From a virus (lineage: Duplodnaviria > Heunggongvirae > Uroviricota > Caudoviricetes), in IMG/VR virus record IMGVR_UViG_2579779107_000005: DNA of 64,000 bases, one strand, 5' to 3'. The notes under the pieces are model-generated. The model had not been told where the DNA came from. It ran no database searches and saw only the letters and a program-made list of their open reading frames with translations. This document shows positions 32,434 to 54,096 of the stretch, piece by piece. Made by a program: the position numbers and the translations under genes. How positions within the stretch are numbered: position 1 is the first letter of the stretch; every line of letters begins with the position of its first letter.

Positions 32434-33006
32434 GTGAGGAAGCTCACACCCGAAGCCGAGGCCGCCGTCGAGCTGGCCGGCAAGAAGTGGCTCAAGCACA
32501 AGACCGCCCGCGAGACGCTCGAGGCGACGATCGCCAAGCGCGTCAAGACGGAGCTGGAGAGCGAAATGCTGGCTATCCGGCTGGAGTTCGCGACCGCCGC
32601 CCAGGCGGCGCTCGACGCCGGCGCGACCAAGATGGCTCTGCGCCGCGTCAGCAGCAAGAACCCCGGCACGCTCGAGGACTACCTCCTGCTGCTCGCCCCA
32701 GCCGAGACGCCCGAGACCGAAGCCGAAGCACAGGCCGCCGCGGTCGACGTCCAGATCGAGTGGATCGCTGGTGACCTGCTCATCAAGCTCGACCCGCAGC
32801 AGATCGCCGAGACCGACATCGACCGGCTCGATCCCGAGCTGTGGAGCGGCCTCTACGAGACGTTCCACCGAGTCGAAGACGACTCCTGGTTCATCGACCC
32901 GACGCCGATGGTCCCCGCCATCCACGGAGTCACCCAGTGGCTCTTCGCGGACACCGCCAACCACGACCGCGTGGTCGCCTGGGTGAAGGCGAACCCGAAG
33001 CCGTGA
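32434..33006 (+). CDS. hypothetical protein
   Basis: 190 aa. Shares a segment (ALDAGATKMALRRVSSK) with the 33647 gene. Confidence 0.45.
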   Translation: MRKLTPEAEAAVELAGKKWLKHKTARETLEATIAKRVKTELESEMLAIRLEFATAAQAALDAGATKMALRRVSSKNPGTLEDYLLLLAPAETPETEAEAQAAAVDVQIEWIAGDLLIKLDPQQIAETDIDRLDPELWSGLYETFHRVEDDSWFIDPTPMVPAIHGVTQWLFADTANHDRVVAWVKANPKP

Positions 33007-33218
33007 GCATCTTCGAGAGCGAGCACGCCTACAAGAAGCCCGGCCTGACCCTCGCCGAGTCGCTCGGGCTGGACATCCCCGACAACGCACCCGGCGGGCA
33101 GCCCCTCCGATCGCCGAATGGCACGGGGCTCAACCGGCTCTCGGAGCGCGCCCGCCGCGCCTCCGCGATCATGGAGAGCGGCTTCTACGACCTGGACGCC
33201 TACCAGAGGAGCGCGTAG
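33003..33218 (+). CDS. hypothetical protein
   Basis: 71 aa. GTG start. Confidence 0.35.
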   Translation: MSIFESEHAYKKPGLTLAESLGLDIPDNAPGGQPLRSPNGTGLNRLSERARRASAIMESGFYDLDAYQRSA

Positions 33219-33499
33219 TGACGGCCGCTCAAGACCGCTGGAGGCTCAAACCCTGGTACTGCGGAATCTGCTGCGTGAAGAGCACGCAGGGCCACCGCAA
33301 GCGCCACGAGGCTTCCGCCTCCCACCGCCGACTCGCCGCTCTCGACTACGGCGCGCCGGTGCCCCCGGCGGTGAAGCAGTCGGATCAGGACTTCGCCGAC
33401 TTCATCGCCCTCTTCCGCCCGCAGCGGCTCACCGGCTACGAGCTGGAGCTGTACCTGCGAGCCAAGACCCCTGACCACTTCGAGATGGAGGCCGCGTAG
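33218..33499 (+). CDS. hypothetical protein
   Basis: 93 aa ORF. Confidence 0.4.
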   Translation: MTAAQDRWRLKPWYCGICCVKSTQGHRKRHEASASHRRLAALDYGAPVPPAVKQSDQDFADFIALFRPQRLTGYELELYLRAKTPDHFEMEAA

Positions 33500-33622
33500 A
33501 TGGACTTCGATGACATCGACGACAGCGCGTACGACGCCTGGCTGGACGAGCAGGCTGACAAGTACGGACTCGACCCCGAGCCCGAATACGACCGCAGCGC
33601 CGAGATGGCCTGGCGCGAATAG
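33500..33622 (+). CDS. small acidic protein
   Basis: 40 aa (MDFDDIDDSAYDAWLDEQ...). Not in ORF track. Confidence 0.25.
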   Translation: MDFDDIDDSAYDAWLDEQADKYGLDPEPEYDRSAEMAWRE

Positions 33623-33646
33623 CCCGCAAACGAGAGGGGGATCGCC

Positions 33647-33958
33647 GTGACGATGGCGACAGTAGAATCTGTCCTCATGGACAAGGAACAGGCGATCGAC
33701 GAGGCCGGCCGAGTGTGGCGCAACAGCGTGGCGGAGCTGCCGGCCCTCAAGAAGCGCATCCGCGCCGAAGCCGAGGCGCGCATCGCCGAGGAGACCGAGG
33801 CCCGCCGCAAGGAGGCCGCCATCGCCATCCAGTTCGCTCTCGACGCTGGGGCCTCCAAGGCCGCACTGCGCCGGGTCACCACCAAGGACTACCGCGACTT
33901 CGAGGGCTACGTCGAGCTGGCCCAGCAGGTCACCGCTGAGGGGGCCGTCAGTGAGTGA
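33647..33958 (+). CDS. hypothetical protein
   Basis: 103 aa. Coiled-coil-like. Confidence 0.45.
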   Translation: MTMATVESVLMDKEQAIDEAGRVWRNSVAELPALKKRIRAEAEARIAEETEARRKEAAIAIQFALDAGASKAALRRVTTKDYRDFEGYVELAQQVTAEGAVSE

Positions 33959-33968
33959 CCCGAAGGGC

Positions 33969-34079
33969 ATGTCCCAGCAGGAGCTGGACGACTACCTCGA
34001 TGAGCTGGTGAAGCACGGCAAGGAAGACACGCCTGAGTTCGCTCGGGCCTACAACGAATGGGAGAGGCGAGATGCCTGA
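33969..34079 (+). CDS. small hypothetical protein
   Basis: 36 aa (MSQQELDDYLDELVKHGKEDTPEFARAYNEWERRDA). Not in ORF track. Confidence 0.25.
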   Translation: MSQQELDDYLDELVKHGKEDTPEFARAYNEWERRDA

Positions 34080-34317
34080 CCTCCTGGAGCGCGCCGACGA
34101 GGACACGCGCACCATCGACACCGAGGGCGGCGACCACGACCGCTTCGCGCACTACTACCGCAAGACCGACATCGAGCGGGCCTTCTTCGAGGGCGCGACG
34201 ATCCAGGCGGCGTGCGGCAAGTGGGACTGCCCGACACGCGACTTCCAGAAGTACCCGGTCTGCCCGGAGTGCAAGGAGCTGTTCGACGCCGCGCCGGACG
34301 AGAACCCGGAGGCGTAG
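34072..34317 (+). CDS. hypothetical Cys-containing protein
   Basis: 81 aa with CGKWDCP ... CPEC. Confidence 0.4.
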   Translation: MPDLLERADEDTRTIDTEGGDHDRFAHYYRKTDIERAFFEGATIQAACGKWDCPTRDFQKYPVCPECKELFDAAPDENPEA

Positions 34318-35886
34318 GTGGCGAGAGCGAAGAAGCCCACCCCGGTCCCGCGTCGCCTCGAGCCGCGCGAGGACCAGGCGTGGAAGATCGAGCGAGTTCT
34401 CAACGAGCCCACACAGGCCGCCCTCATCGCCGACGACATGGGCAAGGGCAAGACGCTCATGGGCACGGAAATCGTGCTGCGCTCGGACTGGAAGCGCACC
34501 CTCATCGTCGGCATCCGCGACACCGGCAAGCAGTGGGCCGAGTCCTTCTTCAACCAGTCCGGCGGCGCCGTCGAGGTCAAGCTGATGAACTCGAAGACCG
34601 TCGACGGCGAGAAGAACTGGGACGACTTCATGGCCGGGAAGCCGGGCGTGTACTTCGCGGGCATCCAGTGGCTCGTCAGCAAGGACTGGGAGGTCGTCAC
34701 CGAGCTGGACGAACACGACCAGCCGATCAAGGTGCAGGACAAGAAGACGGGGGAGTGGAAGGACAAGACGTTCTCCCAGCACACCGAGTTCATCGGCCGC
34801 CGCCTCAACACGAAGGGCCGCCACATCGACGCGGTGATCTTCGACGAGGTGCACAAGATGCAGAACCGGAAGTCGCAGACCTCACGCACCATCTACTCGA
34901 TCAAGTCCGACTGGCGCATCGGCCTGTCCGGCACGTTCGCCGGCAACAGCTTCACCGGCGCGTGGCGCGTCTGCAAGTGGCTGTGGCCCAAGCTGATCGA
35001 CGGCTCCTTCGTGCGCTGGAAGGGCGTGTGGTGCAAGACCGAGCCGATCACTCGCAAGGATGGCTCGATCATCAAGAGCGACAACCCCTACGCCGACAAC
35101 GAGAAGGTCGTGGGGGAGAAGCAGGAGGGCGCGTTCGTGAAGACGCTGCCCTGCTACATCCGCGACGAGCCGGACCCCGTGCCGGCTCCGCGCATCCTCA
35201 CGGTCCAGCTCACCGAGCGGCAGCGCGAGCAGTACGAATCGCTGCAGGAGACGTCAATGGCGTGGCTGGACGCCCACACGCCGTTCGGGAAGGAGCCGCT
35301 GATCGCGGACCTGCCGATCACTCAGCGGCAGCGCCTCCGCACGGCGACGCTCGGCGAGATGCGCTTCCTCGAGGACGGGCGGATCGGCTTCGATCCGATG
35401 TGCGAGAGCGCCAAGCTCAACGTCACCAAGCACATCGTCGACAACATCTGGGCCAACATGCCCATCGTCATCGGCGCGGTCTCGATCGAGTTCGTGATGA
35501 TGGCCGCCGAGCGCTTCCGCAAGTTCGGGTACGGCGCGGTCGAGTGGCACGGCAAGAAGTCGTCGAACGAGCGCGCGAAGGTCAAGGAGGCGTTCATCGC
35601 CCGCGATCCCGCCGCCCGCTACCTCTTCTGCACGATCCCCTCGATCGGCACTGGAACCGACGGCCTGCAGCGGGCCTGCTCCAAGATGATCTGGCTCGAG
35701 GAGAGCGAGAACAACCTCGAGAATGCGCAGTTCGTGAAGCGCTGCGCCCGGCCCGGGATGACGCTCGACTATGGGCCGTTCGAACACGTCAAGCTCCTCG
35801 CCGACGGCACCATCGACTTCGGCATCATGTACCGCCACGACGCCAACCAGGCGTCGATCAACGCCTCAATGCGCCGGGCTGCTTAG
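34318..35886 (+). CDS. SNF2-family helicase/ATPase
   Basis: Motif I DDMGKGKT (SNF2-type DEMGLGKT) and motif II IFDEVH, with a C-terminal helicase domain. Confidence 0.8.
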   Translation: MARAKKPTPVPRRLEPREDQAWKIERVLNEPTQAALIADDMGKGKTLMGTEIVLRSDWKRTLIVGIRDTGKQWAESFFNQSGGAVEVKLMNSKTVDGEKNWDDFMAGKPGVYFAGIQWLVSKDWEVVTELDEHDQPIKVQDKKTGEWKDKTFSQHTEFIGRRLNTKGRHIDAVIFDEVHKMQNRKSQTSRTIYSIKSDWRIGLSGTFAGNSFTGAWRVCKWLWPKLIDGSFVRWKGVWCKTEPITRKDGSIIKSDNPYADNEKVVGEKQEGAFVKTLPCYIRDEPDPVPAPRILTVQLTERQREQYESLQETSMAWLDAHTPFGKEPLIADLPITQRQRLRTATLGEMRFLEDGRIGFDPMCESAKLNVTKHIVDNIWANMPIVIGAVSIEFVMMAAERFRKFGYGAVEWHGKKSSNERAKVKEAFIARDPAARYLFCTIPSIGTGTDGLQRACSKMIWLEESENNLENAQFVKRCARPGMTLDYGPFEHVKLLADGTIDFGIMYRHDANQASINASMRRAA

Positions 35887-35909
35887 CCCGCTATCTGGAA
35901 GGAGAACCA

Positions 35910-36565
35910 TGAGCAGCGCCACCGCAACGCTCACCCCGGTCGTCGCGCCGTCGACCGCCACTGCGTCCCCGACGCCGATCACCCTGGCCCCTGAGCCGAC
36001 CACGCCGCCGGCGACCCGCCGCGCGGCCAAGAAGAAGCCCGCCCCCGGCCGGACGGCACTCGAGCGAGCCGAGCGCGCCGTGCGCCTCGAGCAGCTCCGA
36101 CGCGAGCAGGTCGACGAGTCCAAGAAGTTCCGCCGCTTCTCGGCCCAGCACATCTTCGTGCTCGTCACGCTCCTCGTGCTCGCCGCGTTCATGGCGGCCG
36201 CGTCGTTCCTCACCAGCTTCACCGGTCTCTACGGTGCCGCCTCGTGGGCGATCGGCGACGAGAACCCTTGGCTCAAGGCCGCCGCGCCGCTGATGTACGA
36301 CGGCGCGATCATCGCCTTCACCGTGAAGCTCTTCATGGACAAGGAGGAGGGTGAGAAGGTGCTCTGGACCTGGGTCTGGATCGCCGTGCTCGCCTCGATC
36401 AGCTCGGTCGTGAACATCTTCCACACGGTCGGCGTCTCGACGGCCACCAACTTCCCTCAGCTCATCGTCGGATGCGTCATCTCGGGCTCCGCGCCGTTCC
36501 TGCTCGCGCTCGTCGTCGACGTCGCCGCCAGCAAGGTGTTTCGGAAGCCCGAGGCGAGAACGTGA
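35910..36565 (+). CDS. integral membrane protein
   Basis: 218 aa. Ala/Pro-rich N-terminus then four hydrophobic helices. GGAGAA RBS. Confidence 0.5.
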
Positions 36566-36795
36566 GCGCCACCGCGCGCCGCGCCCGCCGCCTCGACAAG
36601 CGCCTCCTGCGCAGCATCGACCATCGCCTCGCGACGGCGCGAACCAACAAGCTTCGCCACATCGACATGGGGCACTCGCGGTTGAGCGAGAAGGAGCAGA
36701 CGCGAATCGCCCAGCTCGAGGCCGAGCGTCGAGCCGTGCTGGAGCGACTAAATCCACCGAGAGTGCCGGATTCCACGGCCGACTGGGCGGGGTGA
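36562..36795 (+). CDS. hypothetical basic protein
   Basis: 77 aa. GTG start. Confidence 0.35.
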   Translation: MSATARRARRLDKRLLRSIDHRLATARTNKLRHIDMGHSRLSEKEQTRIAQLEAERRAVLERLNPPRVPDSTADWAG

Positions 36796-36932
36796 AGTCA
36801 TCCGCCTGAGACTGTCCTTCGAGCTGCGCATCGAGCGCAGCCCGACCGCAACACCGGAGGAGGCCCCCGACCCACAGGGGGCCGAGTCTGTGACTGAGCG
36901 GGCACCGAGCCCGCGATACGTCGGTTTCCAGA

Positions 36933-37214
36933 TTGAAGAGGAAGGCTACCCACTTGACCGACGATGAAGCCATCGACCTGATCGAGGGCTACGAGGACTG
37001 GCGGAAGAAGCGCGCCAGCTCCGAGCCTGACCTGTCCGCCCGCGCCTACCTCGAGGAGCGGCAGGCAGGCAGGCGGCTCGAGCGCATCGAGTCGCTCGAG
37101 ACCACCGTACGATCCGCCGCCGGCTACACCTCGAAGATCGTCGAGGGGTACGCCGACGTGGTTCCGCTGCACCTGGTGCAGACGGTCCACGACGTCCTGA
37201 CCCGGGAGCCCTGA
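36933..37214 (+). CDS. hypothetical protein
   Basis: TTG start at 36933 or 36954 (GAGGAAGG RBS upstream). Confidence 0.35.
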   Translation: MKRKATHLTDDEAIDLIEGYEDWRKKRASSEPDLSARAYLEERQAGRRLERIESLETTVRSAAGYTSKIVEGYADVVPLHLVQTVHDVLTREP

Positions 37215-37540
37215 TGGGTGCCGGTACGGGGGTCGCGAGGCGAAAGGCCCGCGACTACGTGAGGAACGAGGCAGACCGGGAGTTCCAGCAGGCACACGAG
37301 GAGAGCGTCGACTTGAAGTGCCGGAAGCCCGGAGCTTGGAGGTACTACATCGGCTTCAAGCCGAGCCAGCGGCCCACCGCGGAGGGCGCGAAGCGCCTCT
37401 GCGCTGGTGTGGCCGGCGTCTCCGAGTCCTGCCCGCTGCTCGAAGCGTGTCGGGCCTTCGCCCACAATCTGCCGCCCGGAGTGGCGGACGGAGTGTGGGG
37501 CGGCCAGGTCTGGATCGACGGCGTTCTGCAGGCTGAATGA
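37214..37540 (+). CDS. WhiB-like (Wbl) transcription factor
   Basis: 108 aa. Four Cys including C-X9-C-X5-C (CAGVAGVSESCPLLEAC) followed by the Wbl-type G[VI]WGG turn (GVWGG). Confidence 0.6.
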   Translation: MGAGTGVARRKARDYVRNEADREFQQAHEESVDLKCRKPGAWRYYIGFKPSQRPTAEGAKRLCAGVAGVSESCPLLEACRAFAHNLPPGVADGVWGGQVWIDGVLQAE

Positions 37541-37804
37541 AATTAGTGGGCAATTGCCCCTTGCGTTAGCCCGCTAAACGGCATACCTTGATAGTCACAG
37601 GCAGTCACACAATGACCGCCCCGACCGGAGAGGAGGACCCGTGTTCTGGCAAAACTCGCGTAGGAGGTGAGTTGCTCCCCAGTGAACCCAATCGAACTGA
37701 GGAGCGACCACCATCAGAAGGCGCAGAAGGAATCGGCCGGGCGAGGCAGCTCTCCCTACGAGCTGCCTCCCCGGCCCCACCCATTAGAACAGGAGTTTCA
37801 CCGC

Positions 37805-38833
37805 GTGTCACACGACGACATGACCGAAGACGAGATGAGGGACCTGATGGTCCTGGCGCTCAACCCGACCACCGAGCGCGACCTCCAGATCGAGGTCGGC
37901 GCATCCAACCTGTCCAACCCGTGCGAGCGGTGCCAGGCATTCGAGCTGGTCGGCGTCGACCGCAGCGACCCGATCCTCGACAACGCCTGGGGCGGCCGAG
38001 TGATCGGCACCGCCATCCACAAGCACGCCCAGGGCAACCTCGACAAGGCGGCCGAGACCGCCAACCAGTTCGGCGACGACCTGGCGAAGCTCGGCTGGAT
38101 GTACCCGGGCATGGCACCCGAGAAGCCGGTGTGCCTCGGTGAGCTTCTGCCCGGCCGCACCATCACCTCGACTACCGACCTCTGGCTCCCCAGCCGTCGC
38201 ACCGTCGCCGACATCAAGAACACCGACCTGCGCCACCTCGCCTACTTCCGCGACGCGCTCTCGATCATGCGCGGCGATGGCCCCATCTTCGGGCGCGACC
38301 ACGAGTTCGTCGTGGTCTACGAGCTGACCACCGTCAAGTCCGGCCCGAGCAAGGGTCAGGAGGTCTACCGCAAGGCCAGCAAGGGCGTCTCCGAGCGCGC
38401 CTACGCCGAAGGCATCGCCATGGCGCAGTACAAGATCACCCAGTACCTCCGCCAGCTCCACCTCTACGGGTACGCCCTCGAGCTGGGCGGCGAGACGGTC
38501 AAGCTGCTCTTCATCAACTTCGTGGCCCGCGACTCCGCCATGACCGTCGACAACATCGGAACAGCCCGCTATTTCGAGGTCAACGCGCCCCGCGGCATCT
38601 CCGCCCACCGCTTCGTCTACAGCCGCGACTACGCCGCAGGCATCTGGAAGGAGGCGCAGGCCAAGGCCAAGGCGCTCGACGACGGCAGCAAGGAGCCGCT
38701 CGACTACATGGCACACCCGCTGTGCCTCGTCTGCTCCAGCGAGGAGACCCGCCTCTCCCGCGCGTCGGTCACGGTCGAGGCCCCGACCATCACCGCGGTC
38801 GATGAGTGGGCTGTCCCGGCGGTGGCCGCGTGA
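37805..38833 (+). CDS. RecB/Cas4-like nuclease (PD-(D/E)XK fold with Cys cluster)
   Basis: N-terminal CERC and C-terminal CLVC Cys pairs flank a core with nuclease-like acidic/lys motifs. Start GTG 37805 (AGGAG 9 nt upstream) or ATG 37820. Confidence 0.45.
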   Translation: MSHDDMTEDEMRDLMVLALNPTTERDLQIEVGASNLSNPCERCQAFELVGVDRSDPILDNAWGGRVIGTAIHKHAQGNLDKAAETANQFGDDLAKLGWMYPGMAPEKPVCLGELLPGRTITSTTDLWLPSRRTVADIKNTDLRHLAYFRDALSIMRGDGPIFGRDHEFVVVYELTTVKSGPSKGQEVYRKASKGVSERAYAEGIAMAQYKITQYLRQLHLYGYALELGGETVKLLFINFVARDSAMTVDNIGTARYFEVNAPRGISAHRFVYSRDYAAGIWKEAQAKAKALDDGSKEPLDYMAHPLCLVCSSEETRLSRASVTVEAPTITAVDEWAVPAVAA

Positions 38834-39705
38834 TCGAACTCAGGACAATCATCGGGACGGGCTTCGTCACGACTCCGACGTTCGAGGCGATGCGCTTCCC
38901 GGCAGGGGAGTCGCACGTCAAGATCGCTAACGAGAACGCCGGCAAGGGGTCGCTCACCGAGGTGGCGCGGCTCTACGGTCACGACCCGGCCGACCTGTTC
39001 ACCTTGGCGATGTGGGCGGACGCCGTGCACCAGCGTGGTTCTCGCGCCGTCGCCCAGATTCCCTACCTGCCGGGCGCCCGCGCCGACCGCGGGCTCCCGT
39101 TCGGAGCCAAGGTCTACGCGAAGTTCCTCAACGAGCTGCAGCTCGACAAGGTGGTCGCCGTCGACGTGCATTCGCCCGTCATGGAGAACCTCGTCGAGCG
39201 GCTCGCCGTCGTCGACTCTGCCCCCATCATCCGCCGGCAGGTCGTCGGACGCCCCGACCGCGACGAGCACGCCCAGCGCCACACCGGCATCATCGCCCCC
39301 GACAAGGGAGCGCGCCGCCGTGCCGAAGCGGTCGCCGCCATCTGTGGGCTCCCGGTCTATCAAGCCGAGAAGCACCGCGACGAGGCCACCGGCAAGCTCT
39401 CCGGCTTCTCATGCGAGCCTCTTCCCGAGGACGGCAAGTTCCTCGTCGTCGACGACATTTGCGACGGCGGCGGGACCTTCATGGGGCTCGCTGCCGCCAC
39501 CGGGGTGCCCAGAGAGCGACTCGACCTCTGGGTGACGCATGGCGTCTTCACCGGCGCCGCACCCGCCCTGCGCCACCGCTTCGGCCACCTCTGGACCACC
39601 GACTCGTTCTCGAGCCCGCTGCTCAAGGAGGACTGGCTGCCGGTCCCCGCCAACTTCCTCACCCGCATCTCCCTCGCCCCCTACATGAACGGAGCCCTTC
39701 TGTGA
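38830..39705 (+). CDS. Prs-like phosphoribosyltransferase (ribose-phosphate pyrophosphokinase / possible ADPR-PP synthetase)
   Basis: PRPP-binding loop FLVVDDICDGGGT. Prs-like length (about 291 aa). GTGA-overlapped with the upstream gene and overlaps the NAMPT-like gene. Confidence 0.65.
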   Translation: MIELRTIIGTGFVTTPTFEAMRFPAGESHVKIANENAGKGSLTEVARLYGHDPADLFTLAMWADAVHQRGSRAVAQIPYLPGARADRGLPFGAKVYAKFLNELQLDKVVAVDVHSPVMENLVERLAVVDSAPIIRRQVVGRPDRDEHAQRHTGIIAPDKGARRRAEAVAAICGLPVYQAEKHRDEATGKLSGFSCEPLPEDGKFLVVDDICDGGGTFMGLAAATGVPRERLDLWVTHGVFTGAAPALRHRFGHLWTTDSFSSPLLKEDWLPVPANFLTRISLAPYMNGALL

Positions 39706-41222
39706 GCGCCATTGCGCCCCTCCTCGAGACCGACGCCTACAAGCTCGACCACCGGCGGCAGTACCCCGCCGGGACCAGCAGGGTGTACTCGAACTTCACC
39801 AACCGCGGCAGCCGCATCCCCGGTGTGACGCACGTCGTCCACTTCGGCCTGCAGGCGTTCCTGCAGCGCTACCTCATGGACGGCTTCAAGGCGTTCTTCG
39901 CCGCCGACGAGGACGCTGTGGCCCTGGCCTACGAGCGCGCCGTCGCGTCGATCCTCGGCCCGAACGACGTCGGCTCCGACCATATCCGCGCACTCCACCA
40001 GCTCGGTCACATCCCGCTCCGCTTCGCCGCGGTGCCCGAGGGCACGCCTGTCCCGCTGCGCGTCCCGTCGTTCACCGTCGAGAACACCCACCCGGACTTC
40101 TTCTGGCTCACCAACTACATCGAGACCGTGCTCAGCGCGTCCGTGTGGGGGCCGTCGACGAGCGCCACGATCGCCCGCGAGTACCGCAAGGTGCTCGACG
40201 ACGCGGCCGAGCGCACGGGTGGCAGCAAGGAGGCGGTGGACTTCCAGCTCCACGACTTCTCCTACCGCGGGATGCCCGGCACCGAGGCGGCAGCCGCATC
40301 CGGCGCCGGCCACCTCCTGAGCTTCAAGGGCAGCGACTCCCTCGCCTCCCTCGAGTGGATCGACACCTACTACGGCGACAACCCGTGGCGCACGGACCTC
40401 TACCCGTCGCACACCGGCCTGCCGAACGGCCTCATCCTCGGCAGCGTGCCGGCCACTGAGCACAGCGTGATGTGCGCTGGCGGACAGGACGACGAGGAAG
40501 AGACGTACGAGCGCCTGCTCGAGCTGTACCCCAGCGGCATCGTCTCGATCGTCTCCGACACCTGGGACCTCTGGCACGTCGTCATGAGTATCCTCCCGCG
40601 GCTCCGCCACGACATCATGCAGCGCGACGGCAAGGTTGTGATCCGCCCCGACTCCGGCGATCCCGCGGACATCATCTGCGGCACGCGGCGCACGAAGCGC
40701 GGCTACAACGACGCGGCGGGCACCCCAGAAGAGGCCGGCCTGATCGAGCTGCTGTGGGAGATTTTCGGCGGTACGACGGTCAAGGGCCTCAAGGTGCTGG
40801 ACCCGCACATCGGTGCGATCTACGGCGACAGCATCACCATCGACCGGGCGCGCGACATCATCGAGCGTCTCGAGGCGAAGGGATTCGCGCCGAGCAACAT
40901 TGTCTTCGGTGTCGGCTCGTACACCTACCAGTACGTCACCCGCGACACCTTCGGGTCCGCGATCAAGGCGACGTACGTCGTGGTGGATGGCGAGGGTCGC
41001 AACATCCAGAAGGCGCCCAAGACCGACAACGGCCTCAAGAAGAGCGCCACGGGCCGCCTGGCGGTGGTGCGCTCCAACGGCGAGCTGACGCTTATCCAGG
41101 AGGCTTCGCCGGCCCTGGAGGCCGTCTCGGAGCTGCAGCCGGTCTGGGAGGACGGGCAGTTCATCACCTACCAGTCCTTCGCCGACGTGCGGCGCCAGCT
41201 CGCGCTCTCGACGGATGGCTAG
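39701..41222 (+). CDS. nadV: nicotinamide phosphoribosyltransferase-like (NAMPT/NadV family, possible Namat)
   Basis: About 506 aa. N-terminal TDAYKLDHRRQYP signature of NAMPT and conserved downstream blocks. Confidence 0.8.
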
Positions 41223-41340
41223 GAAGCACTACACCGGCGACTGCCCCCGCTGCGGCCAGTCGACCAAGGACCGGACGTGCCCTGTGTGCACAGATTGCCG
41301 GCAAACCATGAGCGCACTCGAGTTGGACGCCTGGCGATGA
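41215..41340 (+). CDS. small zinc-ribbon protein (not in ORF track)
   Basis: 41 aa (MARKHYTGDCPRCGQSTKDRTCPVCTDCRQTMSALELDAWR). Overlaps the NadV stop. Confidence 0.3.
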   Translation: MARKHYTGDCPRCGQSTKDRTCPVCTDCRQTMSALELDAWR

Positions 41341-41578
41341 CCACTCGAGACGCCCTGCCCCAGCCGGGGGACCCGGAGTACGGATTCCGGTGCCCCCGGG
41401 TGTCGGGCAGCCTGCACCATGCCCAACACGCAAGTCATCGAGTGCATCAGTCCCTACTGCGACTGGATCGGCGGCTCGCCCTGAGCTTGACCACAACATC
41501 TTGTGGTGCTGTATGGTCGCCAGCAGACCAACTTGAAATTGCTGGCTAAATCGCTATCGTCAAAGACCTGGAGGAAAT

Positions 41579-42568
41579 GTGACTGACACCATGACGACCA
41601 CCGCCCCCGCCCCGGCTCCCGAGGCTCCCGCCCCGGCCGCCCCGGAGCCCACGCCCGCCGCCGAGGCGCCCGCCGCAGTCATGCAGCGCTCGCTCGGAGA
41701 CCTGGCCGACCTGATCGGTCTCGAGGTCGAGGACTCGGTGGAGCTGGGCCTGCCCTCCTGCATCGCCATCATCGCCGACGCCGGCGCGGGCAAGACCACG
41801 CTCGCCGGCGGCATCATCAAGGTCCCGCTCTTCCGCAACGCGAAGATCGCCTACATCGACGTCGAGAAGGGCACGAGCGTCTGGGCTCAGGACCCGCAGA
41901 TCATGCACGCCGTGCAGAGCGGACAGATCACGCGGTTCTCGATCGACAAGACAGACCCGATCAAGGCGAAGGGGCAGCTCGACAAGCTCCTCGGCTACAA
42001 GGACGACAACGGCCAGAAGCACGTCGGCGCGCTCTTCTCCCCGGCCTTCGGCGTCGACGTCATCATCATCGACACGTTCGACACCCTGCAGGAAATCGGC
42101 AAGGACTTCTTCATGGCGACGACCCGCACCCAGGACGGCCGCCAGGACACCCAGGGCGCCTACGGCAAGCTCGCGCCGTGGACCACGGACATCCTGTGGG
42201 AGCTGCAGCACGGCAAGCCGTTCGGCCTCGTCCTCTCGCACGGCATGGAGAAGAAGGACAAGAAGACCGGCATCGACAAGCTCTCGATGAAGCTCGCGGG
42301 CTCGGCCAAGGAGTCGGTCGCCTCGATCCCGGACCTCGTGGCGTACATGACCTGGCAGGAGAAGGAGGACGAGGAGCCGCGCCAGACCCACCTCGTCGCT
42401 CACATGAGCCAGTCGGCCGAGGTCACGGTGAAGAACCGGTACGGCTTCGACGGCCCGATGTGGGACTTCTCGCTCCCCGTGCTCTTCGCCGCGATCGACC
42501 AGAAGATCGCCGCCAGCCAGGGCGTCATCGACGCCTTCACCCAGGCCAACACCCCGGCCGTCGCCTAA
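41579..42568 (+). CDS. RecA-like AAA ATPase (Sak4-like recombination/replication ATPase)
   Basis: Walker A IIADAGAGKT and Walker B VIIIDTFD. Ala/Pro-rich N-terminal linker. GGAGGA RBS. Confidence 0.65.
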   Translation: MTDTMTTTAPAPAPEAPAPAAPEPTPAAEAPAAVMQRSLGDLADLIGLEVEDSVELGLPSCIAIIADAGAGKTTLAGGIIKVPLFRNAKIAYIDVEKGTSVWAQDPQIMHAVQSGQITRFSIDKTDPIKAKGQLDKLLGYKDDNGQKHVGALFSPAFGVDVIIIDTFDTLQEIGKDFFMATTRTQDGRQDTQGAYGKLAPWTTDILWELQHGKPFGLVLSHGMEKKDKKTGIDKLSMKLAGSAKESVASIPDLVAYMTWQEKEDEEPRQTHLVAHMSQSAEVTVKNRYGFDGPMWDFSLPVLFAAIDQKIAASQGVIDAFTQANTPAVA

Positions 42569-42597
42569 CCACCAACAGCGAAAGAGAGAACACCACC

Positions 42598-43305
42598 ATG
42601 GCACTGTCCCAGGCAGTTATGGACGCCTTCAACAAGGGCGGCAACGGAGGAGGGCGTCAGCCGGCGCTCCCCGACAACAGCAGGGTCAACGTCACCATCG
42701 TCCCGAGCAAGAAGGACATCGGCTACATCGAGCGCGAGCCGATGACCGAGAAGGACTCCCCGAACGCCCGCATCCGCGTCCTCCGCATGCGCTTCGTGAT
42801 CCCGGAAGGCGAGCAGCACGCCAACCGGAACTTCTTCGCGAACATCCCCGAGGAGTTCGAGGTCTGGTCGGACAAGAACGGCGGCCTCGTCCCGTCGTAC
42901 CTGACCATCGGCCTGATGAAGGCCCTCGGCTACTCCCTCGAGCAGCTCGACGACGACACCGTGAAGAAGATCACCGACCGGGAGCTGCTGAACAAGCGCC
43001 TGCAGCTCGTGCTCGGCGTCGAGGCGGACACCCGCTTCGACGCGGCGGACGCCGACGAGGCCGCGAAGGCCGCCCAGAACCCGCTCTACGCGATGCGCAA
43101 CACGGTGAAGTTCATCAACGCGCCGTCCGCGTCGTCGAGCGCGCCGCGGGCGAGCGCTCCGGCCGCCGGTGGCATCCAGGGCGGCGTGCCGCGCGCCACC
43201 GCCCCCGCCGCTGGCGCCCCGCAGGCCGCGGTCGACCCGTGGGCCGCCGCCGGCGCGCCGGGTGCCGCCACCGACCCCTGGGCCGCCGCCACCCAGACGG
43301 TCTAG
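42598..43305 (+). CDS. hypothetical protein (ATPase partner)
   Basis: 235 aa. C-terminal Ala/Pro-rich tail with repeated DPWAAA. Confidence 0.45.
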   Translation: MALSQAVMDAFNKGGNGGGRQPALPDNSRVNVTIVPSKKDIGYIEREPMTEKDSPNARIRVLRMRFVIPEGEQHANRNFFANIPEEFEVWSDKNGGLVPSYLTIGLMKALGYSLEQLDDDTVKKITDRELLNKRLQLVLGVEADTRFDAADADEAAKAAQNPLYAMRNTVKFINAPSASSSAPRASAPAAGGIQGGVPRATAPAAGAPQAAVDPWAAAGAPGAATDPWAAATQTV

Positions 43306-43396
43306 CAGTAGCCAGCTAAATCGGGCCGCTGCGCACCGATCATCACTCCCCATGTGGGTAAAGACGATCCGGTCGAGATGCGCAGCGGTCCCATCG

Positions 43397-43484
43397 TCCT
43401 CGTAGCTCAGCAGGCAGAGCACTGAGTCGCCGGCGCCGGCGCGAACGAGACAGAGGCCGCGGGTTCGAACCCCGCCGAGGACGC
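43397..43484 (+). tRNA. tRNA-like element (atypical or degenerate; anticodon arm not canonical)
   Basis: Canonical acceptor pair GTCCTCG/CGAGGAC, D-arm TAGCTCAGCAGGCAGAGC and T-arm GCGGG-TTCGAAC-CCCGC. The 37-nt middle is a GC palindrome (GCCGGCGCCGGC) with no 5-7-5 anticodon stem-loop that I could find. Confidence 0.35.
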
Positions 43485-43556
43485 TCACCAAGCCGCCACA
43501 CCCCTGCCTGACCCGAACGGGTGGGGGTGTGGCCTCATCGAGAGGAACCCCCAGTA

Positions 43557-46052
43557 GTGCAGAGGAAGAGCCTCGCGATCGTCGACTATGCAGCCCTGGC
43601 AGCAGAGTCGGGGCTCAAGGTCGTACCGCTCACCCCGGTCGGCAAGATTCCCTGGGTCCAGAACTGGACCGAGGCCGCATCCACCGACGTCGACCAGGTG
43701 TACGCCTGGTTCCAGCAGAAGCCCCAGTCCAACTACGGCATCTGCACGGGCTACGACGGCCTCTTCGTCATCGACCTCGACGGACCAGAGGCGATCGCCT
43801 GGTGGCGCGAGCAAGGCTTCCAGCCCGGCGTCGAAGTGATGACGCCCAACGGCGGCATGCACGTCTACTACCGCGCCCCCGAGGGCTTCGAGGTGCAGAC
43901 GAACCAGAAGAAGCTCCACCACAAGGTCGACGTGCGCGGCGTCGGCGGACAGGCCGCCGGCCCGGGCTCCGTGCTCGGCACCGGGACGTACCGCGGCGAC
44001 GTCGAGGCGATCGCCGAGGCCCCCGAGGCTCCGCCAGAACTCATGGCGATCATCCCGGAAAAGCAGAGCTACACGCAGGTCGCCCCGACCCGTGAGGAGA
44101 AGGTCGAGGAGGCGCACGAGCGAGAGCGCGCAGGCGTCGCCTACATCATCCAGAAGCTCCAGAGCCTCCCCTCCGTCTGGGCCAGCGGCGCCGGATGGCA
44201 CGACACCGTGCGCGACCAGGCGATGTGGCTCTCCCGCATGGTCAACTCCAACGACTACGCCATGACCGAGGACGCCGCCCTCACGATCCTGCTCACCCAC
44301 ACGCCGACCTACCCGAGCTGGGGCGAGGACAAGGTCATCCTCTACTGGGAGGACGCCAAGAAGCGCACCATCGGCCAGTTCGCGCCGCCGCCCGGCGAGG
44401 AAGACGACATCCCCGGCCTGCTGCCGCTCTTCAAGGCGCAGGAAGGAGTGCCGACGACCGATTCCCGTGGGCGCGACTTCATGGACCTCGTGTGGACGCC
44501 GCCGGCAAGCGACACGGACGGCGCCTTCTGGGATCGACGCAGACAGATCATGCTCGAGTCGCTGCGCGCCGGCCTCGACATCCAGCAGGCGTTCTCCCTG
44601 ACCGCAGGCTCGGTCGCCGCCGAGATGCTGATGCGCGAGCACGATGGTCGCCTCACGCTGTGGAAGGAAGCCAAGAAGCACATCCGCGACTTCCAGAACG
44701 AGCAGGTCACGGGGCTCCCGACTCAGGAGCCCGACACGCTCGACGTGCCCGTCGAGCTGGGAGATGTCGACCGCCTCGAACTGCTCACCCGACTCGAGCG
44801 CGAGGCGATGTTCGCCGACCCCGACAAGTACCGGTGGATCGGCACCCGCTACCTCGAGTGGGTACGCGACTCCGTGAAGCTCGCCAACATGCCCTACCAC
44901 CGCCTGCACGTCTGGATGAACCTGTCCGTCGTCTTCGGCATGCTCGCGTACATCCCACGCGAGGGCAAGAAGCTCGGCGTCAACCTCTGGGGCTTCATCA
45001 TCGGCGACTCGTCGACCGGAAAGACCGAGGCTCTCGAGAAGGCCGAGAGCGTGATCGACGCCTACTTCAAAGACGACGACGTGAACCTCGGCGCAGACGC
45101 CACCACAGAGGCCCTGCACGACGCCCTGATCGGCCGCGACGGCAAGCCGAGCTACCAGGTCATCGACGAGGCTCACGGCCTCCTGGGCGACCTCAGCGGC
45201 TCCAAGGGATTCCGCGGCGACCTCATCACCCGATGGACCGAGTTCTACGAGGGCAAGGTCCGCGCCTCGCTGCGCAGCACGAAGAAGGAAATCAGCGGCA
45301 AGGCCGCCACCACCTCCTTCTCGCTCCTCATGCAGGGCACCTCGGAGAAGATGCGGAAGGCCATGAACACCTCGCTGTGGGAGTCCGGCTTCCTGGTGCG
45401 CGCGCTCTTCGTCATCGGCGAGAACATCGAGCCCTCCGAAGAGGACCTCGACGTCCGCCTGATCGAGGGCGACGCCGACGCGGCGTACAACGCCATGCCG
45501 CGTCAGTTCGCCGCCGAATGGCAGAACACCCGCAGAAGGCTCCAGGGCCGCTATGGCGACGACCCGATCAAGATGGAGTTCGAGGCGGACGCCCTCGCCC
45601 GGCTCAACGCCGCGATGAGGCGCATGCGCGCGGACCTCAAGACCAGGCCGAACCAGGTGGCCCTCAAGCCGTACGCGGCCCGATTCCCGAACCAGGTACT
45701 CAAGATGGCGGCGCTCGTAGCGCTCTCCGAAGCCCGTGTCACCGTGAGCGAGAGAGACGTTCTCATCGCCCTGCACGCGAGCGAGGAGTTCCTCACCGCC
45801 GCGATCATCATGGCGAAGCTCACCACCGACACCGACTTCGCGCAGAAGGTCGACGCCGTGGAGAAGCTCGTCGCCGAGCGCGGCGGAAAGCTCGAGCTGA
45901 ACAAGGTCTACAGGCACTTCTCGGAGCCCGTCTTCGAGGTCAACAAGTGGATCGACCAGCTCGTCGCCGAGAGGCGCGTCACCAAGACCAGGCCGATCAC
46001 CGGCGACTTCACCATCAACCTCATCAGAGACACGGAAAGGATGGCGGCATGA
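43557..46052 (+). CDS. bifunctional primase-polymerase (PrimPol) with C-terminal D5-like helicase/ATPase
   Basis: N-terminal Prim-Pol motifs (LFVIDLDG, GGMHVYY). C-terminal Walker A GDSSTGKT. About 830 aa. GTG start with GAGAGGAA RBS. Confidence 0.7.
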   Translation: MQRKSLAIVDYAALAAESGLKVVPLTPVGKIPWVQNWTEAASTDVDQVYAWFQQKPQSNYGICTGYDGLFVIDLDGPEAIAWWREQGFQPGVEVMTPNGGMHVYYRAPEGFEVQTNQKKLHHKVDVRGVGGQAAGPGSVLGTGTYRGDVEAIAEAPEAPPELMAIIPEKQSYTQVAPTREEKVEEAHERERAGVAYIIQKLQSLPSVWASGAGWHDTVRDQAMWLSRMVNSNDYAMTEDAALTILLTHTPTYPSWGEDKVILYWEDAKKRTIGQFAPPPGEEDDIPGLLPLFKAQEGVPTTDSRGRDFMDLVWTPPASDTDGAFWDRRRQIMLESLRAGLDIQQAFSLTAGSVAAEMLMREHDGRLTLWKEAKKHIRDFQNEQVTGLPTQEPDTLDVPVELGDVDRLELLTRLEREAMFADPDKYRWIGTRYLEWVRDSVKLANMPYHRLHVWMNLSVVFGMLAYIPREGKKLGVNLWGFIIGDSSTGKTEALEKAESVIDAYFKDDDVNLGADATTEALHDALIGRDGKPSYQVIDEAHGLLGDLSGSKGFRGDLITRWTEFYEGKVRASLRSTKKEISGKAATTSFSLLMQGTSEKMRKAMNTSLWESGFLVRALFVIGENIEPSEEDLDVRLIEGDADAAYNAMPRQFAAEWQNTRRRLQGRYGDDPIKMEFEADALARLNAAMRRMRADLKTRPNQVALKPYAARFPNQVLKMAALVALSEARVTVSERDVLIALHASEEFLTAAIIMAKLTTDTDFAQKVDAVEKLVAERGGKLELNKVYRHFSEPVFEVNKWIDQLVAERRVTKTRPITGDFTINLIRDTERMAA

Positions 46053-51478: not shown

Positions 51479-52846
51479 CTAATCCAGAAATTCAGCGCTC
51501 GCGCGGAACTGCTGGCCCTGGTGGATCGTGAAGCCGTCGATGATCTGCGGCAGCTCGAAGTGGAACTCGCCCGACTCCTTGAAGCGGATCACGGCGACGC
51601 CCTGCTGCCAGTTCTCGAAGACCTCGGCCGAGCGCCCGTCGGCACCGATCGCACCGTTGACGCTGGGGACCGCGCCGTCGACACGGCAGAGGCAGCCGGG
51701 GTTGATCGCCACCGAGCGAATCGGGCCGAGACGGTCGTAGGTCGTCTTGGACTGCGCCTCGAGGCGGTGAGTGTGGCCGAACGCACGCGAGAAGTGCGGC
51801 GTCTCGTTCGTGTACTTCTCGGCCGTCGACCCGGAACTGCGGACCTTCGTGCCGTGCTCACAGCGGAGCTGGTCGTTGACCCACCAGTGCGACGTCGGGT
51901 AGGCGTCCTTGTAGATGACGTCGAACTCATCCAGGCGCAGCAGGTTCGGCAGACTCATCACCGGCCAGGACTCCGGCATGTTGCCCTTGCGGAGGCCGAA
52001 CGCGGAGACGGCGTTGGTTTCGACGAAGTTCTGCATCCGCTTGTCGTGGTTGCCCTCGATCCAGACGACCTTGCCGGGGGTGGCGGAGCGCAGTTCGGCG
52101 GCAAGGAGGGTGGTGCGGTCGATGGCCGGCTGCGTGGTGAGAGCGAATCCGGCCTCCTGTGCCCAGCGTGACTGCGAGGCAAGGTCGATGATGTCGCCCA
52201 TGACGACAGTCTGTGCCGGCCGCTCGGCAGCGACGATCTGCAGGAAGATGTCGATGGCCGCCTCGTCGTGGAACGGCTCCAGGGAGCCGTCGTCGAGCCG
52301 ACGGAAGCCGATCTGCGTGTCGGCCGCGAGCACCGCGGTCTTCCACTGTCCCCCGAGCGCCGTCGACCGCGGCTTGGGTGCCTTCACCTTGAGCGCAGGA
52401 CCGCGGTCGATCGGCTGCCAGGCAGGGCCTGCCGTGGCCTCCGGCTTGCGGGTGGCCGAGAAGCGATTGGCGTACAGCGTCTTGGTCACCTGGTTCTTGG
52501 TGTGCTGATTCCACACCGAGTGCCCGAACGAGTAGGTGAACTGCTCCGGGTCGTGGCCGTCCTTGCGGAGCTTGTCGAGCCACCAGCTCAGCGGCAGGAT
52601 GCGGTTGTAGACGACCTCGTAGGTGAGGTTGCCCTTCTCGTCCTGCCCGAACACGTCGCGCACCGGCTGGTCGTCGGCAGCTTCGGCGGCCTCCGCTTCC
52701 TGCGCCCGGAGCCGGTTGCGGTACTTCGAGATGGTGGCCTGGGCCACGTCCCACTTGAGTGCGAGGGCGGCCTGGGGGGCGTCTCCGCGCAGGTCGTCCA
52801 GGAACTCCTGGTTGTTGAGCAGGTCGATGGCCCTGGGGTCGTGCAA
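51479..52846 (-). CDS. calcineurin-like metallophosphoesterase with N-terminal HTH
   Basis: GDIIDL and GNHD metallophosphatase motifs. N-terminal helix-turn-helix-like segment. Confidence 0.65.
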   Translation of the reverse strand: MHDPRAIDLLNNQEFLDDLRGDAPQAALALKWDVAQATISKYRNRLRAQEAEAAEAADDQPVRDVFGQDEKGNLTYEVVYNRILPLSWWLDKLRKDGHDPEQFTYSFGHSVWNQHTKNQVTKTLYANRFSATRKPEATAGPAWQPIDRGPALKVKAPKPRSTALGGQWKTAVLAADTQIGFRRLDDGSLEPFHDEAAIDIFLQIVAAERPAQTVVMGDIIDLASQSRWAQEAGFALTTQPAIDRTTLLAAELRSATPGKVVWIEGNHDKRMQNFVETNAVSAFGLRKGNMPESWPVMSLPNLLRLDEFDVIYKDAYPTSHWWVNDQLRCEHGTKVRSSGSTAEKYTNETPHFSRAFGHTHRLEAQSKTTYDRLGPIRSVAINPGCLCRVDGAVPSVNGAIGADGRSAEVFENWQQGVAVIRFKESGEFHFELPQIIDGFTIHQGQQFRASAEFLD

Positions 52847-52869
52847 GCTGGTCCTCCTGAGTTAGCCGG

Positions 52870-53196
52870 CTACTTGGCGATCGCGGATGCGAGCTGCGAC
52901 AGCGTGACGAACAGGCCGACGCCGGTTCCGCACGCGGCGAGGATCGCGGCGATGCCGCCTACGACGACGTACCAGGGAGCGCGTGGGCGCTCCCTGGACT
53001 CGATGACGGTGAGGCGCGTCTTCACGCCCTCGATTTCGGTGCGGTTGGTGACGTTCTCGGCGCGCACGTCGTCGACGGCCTTGACCTGCTCGGCCTTGAA
53101 GTCGGTGAACGCCTGCAAGATGTTGCGCTGCCCTTCCTGAACCACGCCGATTGCGACGGCGAGGCCGGTGAAGTCCTTGGGAGTCTCGTCGCCCAC
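52870..53196 (-). CDS. holin-like membrane protein
   Basis: About 108 aa. C-terminal TM helix (WYVVVGGIAAILAACGTGVGLFVTL). Immediately downstream of the endolysin. The PRS-rich upstream part of the ORF-track frame is an artefact. Confidence 0.45.
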   Translation of the reverse strand: MGDETPKDFTGLAVAIGVVQEGQRNILQAFTDFKAEQVKAVDDVRAENVTNRTEIEGVKTRLTVIESRERPRAPWYVVVGGIAAILAACGTGVGLFVTLSQLASAIAK

Positions 53197-53197
53197 G

Positions 53198-54037
53198 TCA
53201 GAGACCGAGGGCCTTCCAGGTCTTGTCGCCCACGATCCCGTCGACGTAGAGGCCGGCGCGACGCTGGAACTCCCGCACCGCGGCGTCCGTGTTCGAGCCG
53301 AAGTCACCGTCGAGCACGAGGTTGCCAGCGTAGAGCGGGTAGACGGTCTTGAGTCGGGTCTGCAGGTCCTTGACGTCCTGACCCTTCGAGCCCTTCTTGA
53401 TCTGCGGGCGACCAGAGGCGGTGGGCGCGGGGTTCGCGACCGCCGGTGCACCGCCGAGGGCGGCCTCGGACTTCGGGCCAAAGAGGCCGTCGACCGTGAG
53501 GCCGTTCTTGCTCTGGAAGTCGCGTAGGGCGGCAACCGTGGTGGCGCCGATCTTGTCGTCGACGGCGAGCTTGTAGCCCTTGGCGTTGAGCTTGGTCTGC
53601 ACCCCGGCGCCGTAGCCGGGCGTGATGGTGGAGCCAACGATGACCGTGCGGACCCAGTGCCAGCTCTCGCCGGACGACTTGCCCTGCACGTTGTCGAAGC
53701 CGAAGCGGGCGGCGTTCTTGTCGAGCCACGCTTTGACGCCGGCGCCCATGTAGACGTCGACGGCGCAGCCGAGGCCGTGGTTGGAGAAGCCGGGGGTCGC
53801 GGCGACGGGGCCGCCCGCCTTCGCGCGACGGTCGGCCTCCCGCTGTCCGGCGAGGTCGCGGTAGCAGGACGGTACGCCGTCGTCTGCCGCGGGGCGGAGC
53901 GTGATGCCGTCCGAGGCTGCAGCCGCCACCATCGCGGCCCACTGGGCAGCCGTCTGCCGCTCGAGCACCTGCCCGGGTGCGCCGTTAGCCGCCTGCACCA
54001 GTTCGGATGCGGGAATCTGTCCGTTCGCGTACGTCAC
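53198..54037 (-). CDS. endolysin: M15 (VanY-like) peptidase with two peptidoglycan-binding domains
   Basis: SNHGLGCAVDV zinc-binding motif plus downstream His. Two PG_binding_1-like repeats (TVAALRDFQSKNGLTVDGLFGPKSEAAL; DAAVREFQRRAGLYVDGIVGDKTWKAL). GTG start at 54037 with GGAAGGA RBS. The N-terminal half of the 438-aa track ORF is an artefact. Confidence 0.75.
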   Translation of the reverse strand: MTYANGQIPASELVQAANGAPGQVLERQTAAQWAAMVAAAASDGITLRPAADDGVPSCYRDLAGQREADRRAKAGGPVAATPGFSNHGLGCAVDVYMGAGVKAWLDKNAARFGFDNVQGKSSGESWHWVRTVIVGSTITPGYGAGVQTKLNAKGYKLAVDDKIGATTVAALRDFQSKNGLTVDGLFGPKSEAALGGAPAVANPAPTASGRPQIKKGSKGQDVKDLQTRLKTVYPLYAGNLVLDGDFGSNTDAAVREFQRRAGLYVDGIVGDKTWKALGL

Positions 54038-54072
54038 GAGTATCCTTCCGTCACCAGGGAGTCTACAGCGCA

Positions 54073-54096
54073 CTCCCAGGAAACGCCCAGAATCAG
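54073..54096 (-). promoter_or_regulatory. late-gene upstream motif (CTCCCAGGAAACGCCCAGAATCAG)
   Basis: Lies 35-55 nt upstream of the endolysin GTG and abuts the upstream gene's stop. Confidence 0.4.

Follow-up and report, generated by a model that had tools for sequence, protein, structure and literature searches.

A probable two-gene NARP1 module for NAD+ reconstitution in a prophage-like region of Leifsonia aquatica

The DNA analysed here is a 64,000 nt stretch of the IMG/VR virus record IMGVR_UViG_2579779107_000005 (Caudoviricetes), referred to below as the window, in which two plus-strand genes encode a divergent member of the Prs family and a member of the NAMPT family. We call them Adps-like and Namat-like after the two enzymes of the phage nicotinamide adenine dinucleotide (NAD+) reconstitution pathway 1 (NARP1), of which they are the predicted homologues; all positions are given in Table 1. 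An earlier reading of the locus, made from the sequence alone, had reported two overlapping genes here, and its coordinates and motifs were confirmed to the base. The Prs-like protein contains GKFLVVDDICDGGGTF at residues 206-216 (nt 39445-39477), while the NAMPT-like protein has LETDAYKLDHRRQYP close to its N-terminus and its 506-residue open reading frame (ORF) opens with MSAIAPLLETDAYKLDHRRQYP. NARP1 is recognised by a Namat-like gene within 10 genes of an Adps-like gene; here they are immediate neighbours that share 4 nt (GTGA), an arrangement that implies translational coupling, and a GGAG lies 8 nt 5′ of the Namat-like GTG. The identical overlap was found in Wigglewiggle, SpeedDemon and the related loci L025, L026, L027, L028 and L030, and the Adps-like start overlaps the stop codon of the exonuclease-like gene upstream (38831-38833) by GTGA too. 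Both are real genes rather than chance ORFs, as judged from third-codon-position GC (0.89 for the Adps-like and 0.94 for the Namat-like gene, resembling the other 91 called genes in a window of 67% GC that ranges from 62 to 69%), family matches (PF04095, 3.5e-37; NF006629, 2e-156; phrog_619, 1e-66) and public annotation. Their exact products are present in NCBI as the Leifsonia aquatica proteins WP_162819128.1 ('phosphoribosyltransferase family protein') and WP_240183669.1 ('nicotinate phosphoribosyltransferase').

Osterman et al. reported that the 'Prs' encoded beside 'Nampt' genes in phages does not synthesise phosphoribosyl pyrophosphate (PRPP) and instead pyrophosphorylates ADP-ribose (ADPR), and that its partner Namat joins the resulting ADPR pyrophosphate (ADPR-PP) to nicotinamide to give NAD+ (10.1101/2024.02.11.579819). 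The same study placed Adps in a clade of its own, 97% of whose members are Namat-linked, described the inactive SPbetaL1 mutants Adps K162A (which abolishes NAD+ production) and Namat R306G, and found NARP1 in 4.3% of phages, never together with NARP2, a pathway that needs the nicotinamide mononucleotide (NMN) adenylyltransferase Nmnat (10.1101/2024.02.11.579819). The structure of SPbetaL1 Namat, solved by Lan et al., revealed an adenine 'selectivity clamp' made up of the loop residue R40 and a helix motif with the consensus GS-X-φ1-X-φ2-X-φ3-TRD, in which X is aromatic, φ1 is T or S, φ2 is Q or N and φ3 is N or V (PMC12774641). The third position of the selectivity-clamp loop (SCL) holds Arg, Lys or Tyr as the adenine-stacking residue; R40 stacks on the adenine of NAD+, a R40A/F392G mutant loses ADPR-PP-dependent activity, and the clamp, which is absent from Nampt, is required for the use of ADPR-PP and not for that of PRPP (PMC12774641). 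Purified Adps and Namat of mycobacteriophage DyoEdafos have likewise been found to convert ADPR to NAD+ (10.64898/2026.05.28.727677).

Curated models separate the Adps-like protein from PRPP synthetases. On TIGR01251, for which the cut-off is 113 bits, it scored 80.1 bits, compared with 96–139 bits for validated or Bas63-type Adps and 423 bits for E. coli Prs, and it fell far under the cut-offs of all 11 NCBIfam Prs models, on which E. coli Prs scored 423–533 bits. In a neighbour-joining tree (Kimura distances, 300 bootstraps) it lay in a 100% clade with Namat-linked phage proteins, the members being the window protein and those of actinophages, SPbetaL1, FADO, Staphylococcus, Felixounavirus, PAK_P1 and ICP1, with nine Prs outside, six of them cellular, drawn from four phyla, and three being divergent prs paralogues of plasmids. 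A hidden Markov model (HMM) of Adps built from non-actinobacterial Namat-linked proteins only gave it 143 bits, versus 44 bits on a cellular Prs HMM; in a leave-group-out control, SPbetaL1 Adps scored 119 bits on the Adps HMM versus 59 bits on the Prs HMM. We also found that phrog_619 matches the Adps-like protein at 226 bits; as E. coli Prs also reaches 193 bits on phrog_619, and the KVP40-like Nampt 548 bits on phrog_448, neither family discriminates and both were dropped as tests of membership.

Shared derived characters point the same way. The Adps-like protein lacks the helix that cellular Prs have at either terminus, reads DVHSPVMENLV where Prs has DLHAxQIQGFF, replaces the RQDR(K/R) of Prs by ARADR followed by a shortened loop, and has DDICDGGGT in place of DD(M/I)IDT(G/A)GT, so that it shows the Adps state at six of eight clade-diagnostic columns. 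The DDICDG form is common to the Adps-clade members of Felixounavirus, PAK_P1, ICP1 and actinophages, whereas cellular Prs have DDM/IIDTG/AGT. Its flexible loop (KHRDEATGK) follows the clade pattern K-x-R-(D/N)-x-x-T-G, and K181 within it aligns with K162 of SPbetaL1 Adps in a column that is invariant in 20 of 20 aligned sequences. An AlphaFold2 model (mean predicted local distance difference test score 89.7) has the two-domain Prs fold, with template modelling scores of 0.70–0.74 to the E. coli and human enzymes. The sequence-only reading had proposed as a check whether the protein clusters with housekeeping Prs; it groups instead with the Namat-associated Adps clade and scores under every curated Prs cut-off. 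The second discriminator that it had named, retention of the ribose-5-phosphate contacts, fails: validated Adps also keep the DD...GGT loop, and such contacts cannot discriminate, the terminal moiety of ADPR being ribose-5-phosphate as well. On the tree, the HMM scores and the shared characters, the Prs-like protein is assigned to the Adps clade, separate from cellular Prs.

The evidence from the second protein comes from structures as well as phylogeny. Its top match among solved structures is 9w5x/9w5w (515 bits, E 1e-153; human NAMPT, 247 bits), a chain that is 100% identical to the SPbetaL1 gene product and in which the numbering of D13, Y15 and R40 fits the Namat of PMC12774641. It is 52% identical to SPbetaL1 Namat, 60% to DyoEdafos Namat and 60–65% to actinophage Namats; its identity to the KVP40-like Nampt that Vibrio phage nt-1 encodes is just 30%. 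A neighbour-joining tree with 300 bootstraps placed it in a 100% clade with the validated Namats of SPbetaL1 and FADO, a clade that leaves out the Nampts of nt-1, Klebsiella T4-like phage and Caulobacter. The helix motif of the selectivity clamp fits the Namat consensus exactly, whereas Nampts outside the clade have GGGLLQ..(D/T)RD at this position, and R38, by alignment only, corresponds to the adenine-stacking R40 of SPbetaL1. The catalytic core is conserved: the column of His254 is conserved in 15 of 15 aligned Namat and Nampt sequences, and F186, R189, D212, R315 and D317 correspond to F189, R192, D215, R306 and D308 of SPbetaL1. The phylogeny of the NAMPT-family protein that the sequence-only reading had called for thus falls out with the Namat clade (100%) and outside the KVP40-type Nampt clade, with the clamp signature present, and the protein is accordingly classed by tree and motif as an Adps-associated Namat, distinct from the Nmnat-associated Nampt.

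Table 1. Features of the Adps-like/Namat-like locus, in positions of the window.
Feature	Position	Strand	Remarks
Exonuclease-like gene upstream, 342 aa	37805..38833	+	phrog_1674 'exonuclease', E 2e-18; outside NARP1 proper
Adps-like gene (ADPR-pyrophosphate synthetase homologue, divergent Prs family)	38830..39705	+	GTG start, TGA stop 39703-39705, 291 aa
Lys181 codon, Adps-like protein	39370..39372	+	Flexible catalytic loop EKHRDEATGK
Ribose-phosphate binding loop VVDDICDGGGT, aa 206-216	39445..39477	+	From sequence
GTGA start/stop overlap, Adps-like/Namat-like	39702..39705	+	4 nt, from sequence
Namat-like gene (nicotinamide ADPR-transferase homologue, NAMPT family)	39702..41222	+	GTG start, TAG stop 41220-41222, 506 aa
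Arg38 codon, Namat-like protein	39813..39815	+	Adenine-stacking residue of the SCL, by alignment
His254 codon, Namat-like protein	40461..40463	+	Catalytic His in PATEHSVMC
Selectivity-clamp helix motif GSYTYQYVTRD, aa 405-415	40914..40946	+	Exact fit to Namat consensus
41-aa Cys-rich zinc-ribbon-like ORF	41215..41340	+	ATG start, CxxC...CxxCxxC; overlaps Namat-like stop by 8 nt

The window is phage-like throughout, with a capsid gene and further large ORFs of unassigned function at the left end, genes for tail, baseplate and lysin at the right end, and a middle section that has many small ORFs and encodes a SNF2 helicase, an AAA_24 ATPase, a Prim-Pol, an RNA ligase and a dNMP kinase. Genes of replication and recombination (SNF2 helicase, exonuclease, AAA_24 and Prim-Pol) share their strand with the NAD pair. 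In a scan of 33000-44000 we found no terminator-like site on the plus strand and a single promoter-like site, located beyond the pair at 41533-41560. The exonuclease-like gene, which has no Pfam match, is context of the same transcription unit and not a component of NARP1. Although catalogued as a virus, the record is not a free phage genome: both proteins are encoded on a 638,457-bp contig of a Leifsonia aquatica assembly, and the window is instead a resident prophage-like region of that assembly, with no integrase or attachment site seen within it. At each end of the window, structural genes of the minus strand continue beyond the edge (1-7196, capsid; 51479-63986, tail, baseplate and lysin), which implies either a prophage longer than 64 kb or a permuted stretch.

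Taken together, the pair is very probably a minimal two-gene NARP1 in a siphovirus-like prophage region of L. aquatica, co-transcribed with replication and recombination genes. The NARP1-like interpretation offered by the sequence-only reading is thereby supported, by the clade membership of both proteins, the clamp motif and a window free of NMNAT genes. In the mechanism proposed, an immune effector of the host with NADase activity (SIR2, TIR or SEFIR type) would cleave NAD+ to ADPR and nicotinamide, and the Adps-like enzyme would use ATP to pyrophosphorylate the terminal ribose of ADPR, yielding ADPR-PP. The clamp of the Namat-like enzyme (R38, Y407, Y411, T413 and D415) would then grip the adenine of ADPR-PP while the enzyme exchanged pyrophosphate for nicotinamide, so that NAD+ would be formed directly, without NMN or an NMN adenylyltransferase.

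Several observations weigh against this interpretation. The Adps-like protein is 25% identical to SPbetaL1 Adps, barely more than the 20–24% that it shares with true Prs, and because pairwise identity is uninformative the assignment depends on linkage together with tree topology and shared indels. When the Prs-like protein was searched against the PDB by sequence and by fold, true Prs alone came back, there being no Adps structure or defined set of ADPR-binding residues to match. Both trees are neighbour-joining trees of 15–20 sequences rather than maximum-likelihood trees of the full sample. Both reactions, together with the counter-defence role, are predicted by homology to the systems of SPbetaL1, Bas63, FADO and DyoEdafos, and Namat enzymes also use PRPP in vitro, making NMN (PMC12774641; 10.1101/2024.02.11.579819). 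Homologues at 61–64% identity occur in plainly chromosomal, NrtR-linked operons of Microbacteriaceae, and the pair can therefore serve a housekeeping role in ADPR recycling. Finally, the absence of an NMNAT, which the sequence-only reading had set as a check, holds for the 85 window genes; the prophage continues beyond the window, where an NMNAT may lie.

In two rival readings NAD+ would be made by way of NMN. In classical salvage, the way databases formerly interpreted prs-nadV pairs, the pair would be a true PRPP synthetase and a true Nampt (NadV) that make NMN, with host enzymes finishing NAD+. Membership of both proteins in the Prs and NAMPT superfamilies fits this, as do the annotation of relatives as 'phosphoribosyl pyrophosphate transferase' and 'nicotinate ribosyltransferase' and the PRPP-dependent NMN synthesis that Namat enzymes retain in vitro. 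However, a PRPP synthetase would not be expected to score under the Prs cut-offs, to lack DLHAxQIQGFF and the N-terminal and C-terminal helices, or to cluster with proteins shown not to make PRPP, and the second protein carries an adenine clamp that is needed for the use of ADPR-PP and is absent from Nampt; we regard classical salvage as very unlikely. NARP2, in which a KVP40-type Nampt and a phage NMN adenylyltransferase make NAD+ from PRPP, nicotinamide and ATP, could account for a second gene of the NAMPT family, the more so as phrog_448 and NF006629 do not tell Namat from Nampt. It is nevertheless extremely unlikely: a Pfam scan of the 85 window genes of at least 60 aa (E<=0.001) found neither an NMNAT (CTP_transf_like, PF01467) nor a Nudix gene, the prophage extending past both window ends; the Namat-like protein is 30% identical to the nt-1 Nampt and lies outside that group of the tree; and the partner is of the Adps type, the preprint on the two pathways having found no phage with both (10.1101/2024.02.11.579819). 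The likeness to NARP2 of Vibrio phage KVP40 is confined to a NAMPT-family enzyme and NAD+ as end product, the differences being the want of an Nmnat in the window and the sequence GGGLLQQLDRD that the KVP40-like nt-1 Nampt has at the clamp position.

A third alternative keeps the chemistry of NARP1 and changes its purpose, the main role being ADPR recycling or NAD+ homeostasis in the lysogen rather than lytic-cycle counter-defence, as in the chromosomal NrtR-linked operons. The element does sit in a 638 kb contig of a bacterial assembly and carries an insertion of insertion sequence (IS) type with a transposase, its Adps-like protein groups (99%) with chromosomal copies of Frondihabitans, Leifsonia and Curtobacterium that precede a Nudix/NrtR-like regulator, and both NARP1 papers recognise that bacteria also carry NARP1 away from mobile elements (PMC12774641; 10.1101/2024.02.11.579819). 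Against these stand the coupling of the window pair to same-strand replication and recombination genes with no NrtR gene, the recurrence of the same synteny in an 80-kb phage contig and another prophage, and the grouping of the Namat-like protein with phage rather than chromosomal Namats; we consider a primarily lysogenic role quite unlikely.

Comparison with named systems places the pair within the actinophage part of NARP1. With the Bacillus phage SPbetaL1 it shares adjacent genes in the order Adps then Namat, 52% identity in Namat, the clamp class, clamp Arg, catalytic His and F/D/R core of Namat, the Adps Lys, and the lack of an NMNAT. The Adps proteins differ in being 25% identical, in the loop (DDLSSFGGT in SPbetaL1 versus DDICDGGGT), and in the shorter loop after ARADR and distinct C-terminus of the window protein, while the Namat-like protein has two short insertions at about residues 226–240 and 333–345; furthermore, the window host is a high-GC actinobacterium, and the SPbetaL1 enzymes have been assayed whereas the window pair is known from its genes. 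Mycobacterium phage DyoEdafos (MN234187.1, gp77 and gp79) is closer, at 39% identity for Adps and 60% for Namat, falls in the same actinophage subclade with 100% bootstrap support in both trees, and likewise carries its module among replication genes. In contrast to the direct overlap in the window, a RyDEP gene (gp78) lies between its Adps and Namat genes (L031:2664-3080), and accessory genes evidently insert readily at the Adps/Namat junction. Among sequenced phages of the collection, Microbacterium phage Pumpernickel (gp208 and gp211; 44–45% in Adps and 64–65% in Namat) is the closest; it has the identical clamp motif GSYTYQYVTRD, and its gp211 is given as Adps-associated in the NARP1 supplementary tables. 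It differs as a 186-kb lytic phage with two small ORFs between the two genes and metallophosphoesterase genes after them, and the rest of the window has no nucleotide similarity to it. Besides Pumpernickel, those tables list the Gordonia phages Bantam and OneUp and many mycobacteriophages, including ones of cluster L, as Adps/Namat (10.1101/2024.02.11.579819); NARP1 is already known and the actinophage subclade already forms part of its published catalogue.

Neither of the accessory forms of NARP1 was recognised at the locus. NARP1-AP includes a Macro-domain phosphatase of ADPR 1-phosphate (ADPR-1P), Adpp, encoded within two genes of the pair; hmmscan gave no Macro domain match (PF14519, PF01661, PF20016) in the window, the source study of NARP1-AP having used the more sensitive HHpred, and NARP1-AP was rejected. 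The genes that flank the pair are the exonuclease-like gene and two small ORFs upstream, and the zinc-ribbon ORF and the AAA_24 gene downstream. RyDEP, a RyR-domain glycosidase of cyclic ADPR (cADPR) that feeds cADPR immune signals into NARP1 (10.64898/2026.05.28.727677), was likewise rejected, with no PF02026 gene inside or beside the pair, no RyR domain match in Pfam scans of the window, and a direct overlap between the Adps-like and Namat-like genes. A tblastn search of the window with the NrtR-like third proteins of the chromosomal operons returned nothing.

The small zinc-ribbon ORF was also considered as a third component of the module. The sequence-only reading had noted that it overlaps the Namat-like stop, which stands (8 nt), but the ORF is unconserved, and even its status as a gene is doubtful. 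It has sub-threshold matches only (DUF7559, 18 bits with a cut-off of 27; YacG, 16 with a cut-off of 79), a reduced third-position GC (0.81), no tblastn match at E<=1 among 50,697 phage records and no entry in a collection of 15 billion proteins, and it is not called in the public annotation. With unrelated small ORFs occupying its position in SpeedDemon, Pumpernickel, PAK_P1 and L025, no phage homologue, and no conservation beside Namat in the relatives examined, it was rejected as a module component.

Homologues of the pair at 52–71% identity are abundant in Microbacteriaceae, and a Microbacterium sp. M prophage as well as an 80-kb Logan phage contig repeat the synteny of the window. Chromosomal pairs were found in Frondihabitans sucicola (L026:10001-13051), Leifsonia aquatica (L027:8001-11067) and Curtobacterium sp. 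TC1 (L028:8001-11100), where the neighbouring genes are flagellar, ABC-transporter and siderophore genes. The third gene of these operons encodes a conserved Nudix-like protein of 208–220 aa; one of the three also matches the NrtR winged-helix domain weakly. For such pairs the comparators are chromosomal operons of the prs-nadV-nrtR type, in which ADPR releases NrtR from DNA (Rodionov et al. 2008, PMC2330246), and bacterial NARP1 as in Paenibacillus foliorum (PMC12774641). The three-gene operons look like the type with an ADPR-sensing regulator, recalling prs-nadV-nrtR. They resemble the window pair in sequence (61–64% in Adps, 55–58% in Namat), in the 4-nt overlap and, in two of three, in clamp class; in contrast, they end in the Nudix-like/NrtR gene and have housekeeping neighbours, whereas the window has no such gene and phage neighbours. 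A further arrangement, an enlarged NAD/ADPR cluster, was noted on the 545 kb megaplasmid pS16 of Curtobacterium sp. MCSS17_016 (L020:5839-10231), with genes for Adps-like, TerD, Namat-like, NADAR and NUDIX proteins in that order.

The two genes of the window do not have the same nearest relatives. In the neighbour-joining trees, the window Adps groups with the chromosomal copies (99%), and the window Namat with phage Namats (72%), apart from the chromosomal Namats (100%). This disagreement across the window, L025, L026, L027, L028 and L030 may possibly reflect gene-level mosaicism, as judged from neighbour-joining trees only. A broader scenario, in which NARP1 of Microbacteriaceae moves between chromosomes and temperate phages, its two genes have different histories and the prophage copy may act in the lysogen, appears unlikely to us. 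If it were true, the prophage copy might shield the host against NADase effectors, whether the host's own or those of competitors, or might blunt abortive infection, and the module would not be purely a lytic counter-defence.

Other features of the window were noted in passing. A lower-GC gap at 7702-10091 contains a minus-strand gene (7702-8634) for a 310-aa protein whose N-terminus is hydrophobic and resembles a signal peptide and, on the plus strand, an ORF of up to 485 aa (8634-10091) that resembles, read by eye, a DDE transposase of an IS element; an IS insertion at 7702-10091 fits a resident prophage. A tRNA-Ala(GGC) at 43396-43484 (+), with the gene at 42619-43305 on one side and that for Prim-Pol on the other, was identified by ARAGORN and Rfam (49.7 bits); at 89 nt, compared with the 71-position model, it carries an insertion. 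There are also two candidate genes for anti-restriction or modification, one ArdA-like at 23824-24600 (+; PF07275, E 6e-5, under the cut-off) and the other DndB/DGQHR-like within 1-23814 (PF14072, E 4e-34). At the DNA level, the locus and 25 kb of the window, compared with the 50,697 phage records, gave just short 73–77% matches inside the Namat gene; with no close relative among them, there was no annotation to borrow.

With the pathway, the structure-based signature and an actinophage example all published, the locus opens no new question, and the mildly interesting remainder is the traffic between chromosomal NrtR-linked operons and Microbacteriaceae prophages. Public annotation still describes the two proteins as 'phosphoribosyltransferase family protein' and 'nicotinate phosphoribosyltransferase', and the clamp motif together with a sub-threshold Prs score suffices to re-annotate pairs of this kind. 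If the pair is NARP1, as we think very probable, the host range of a known counter-defence pathway would extend to a Leifsonia prophage, and its presence predicts that NAD+-depleting immunity of the Thoeris, SIR2 or DSR type matters in Microbacteriaceae.

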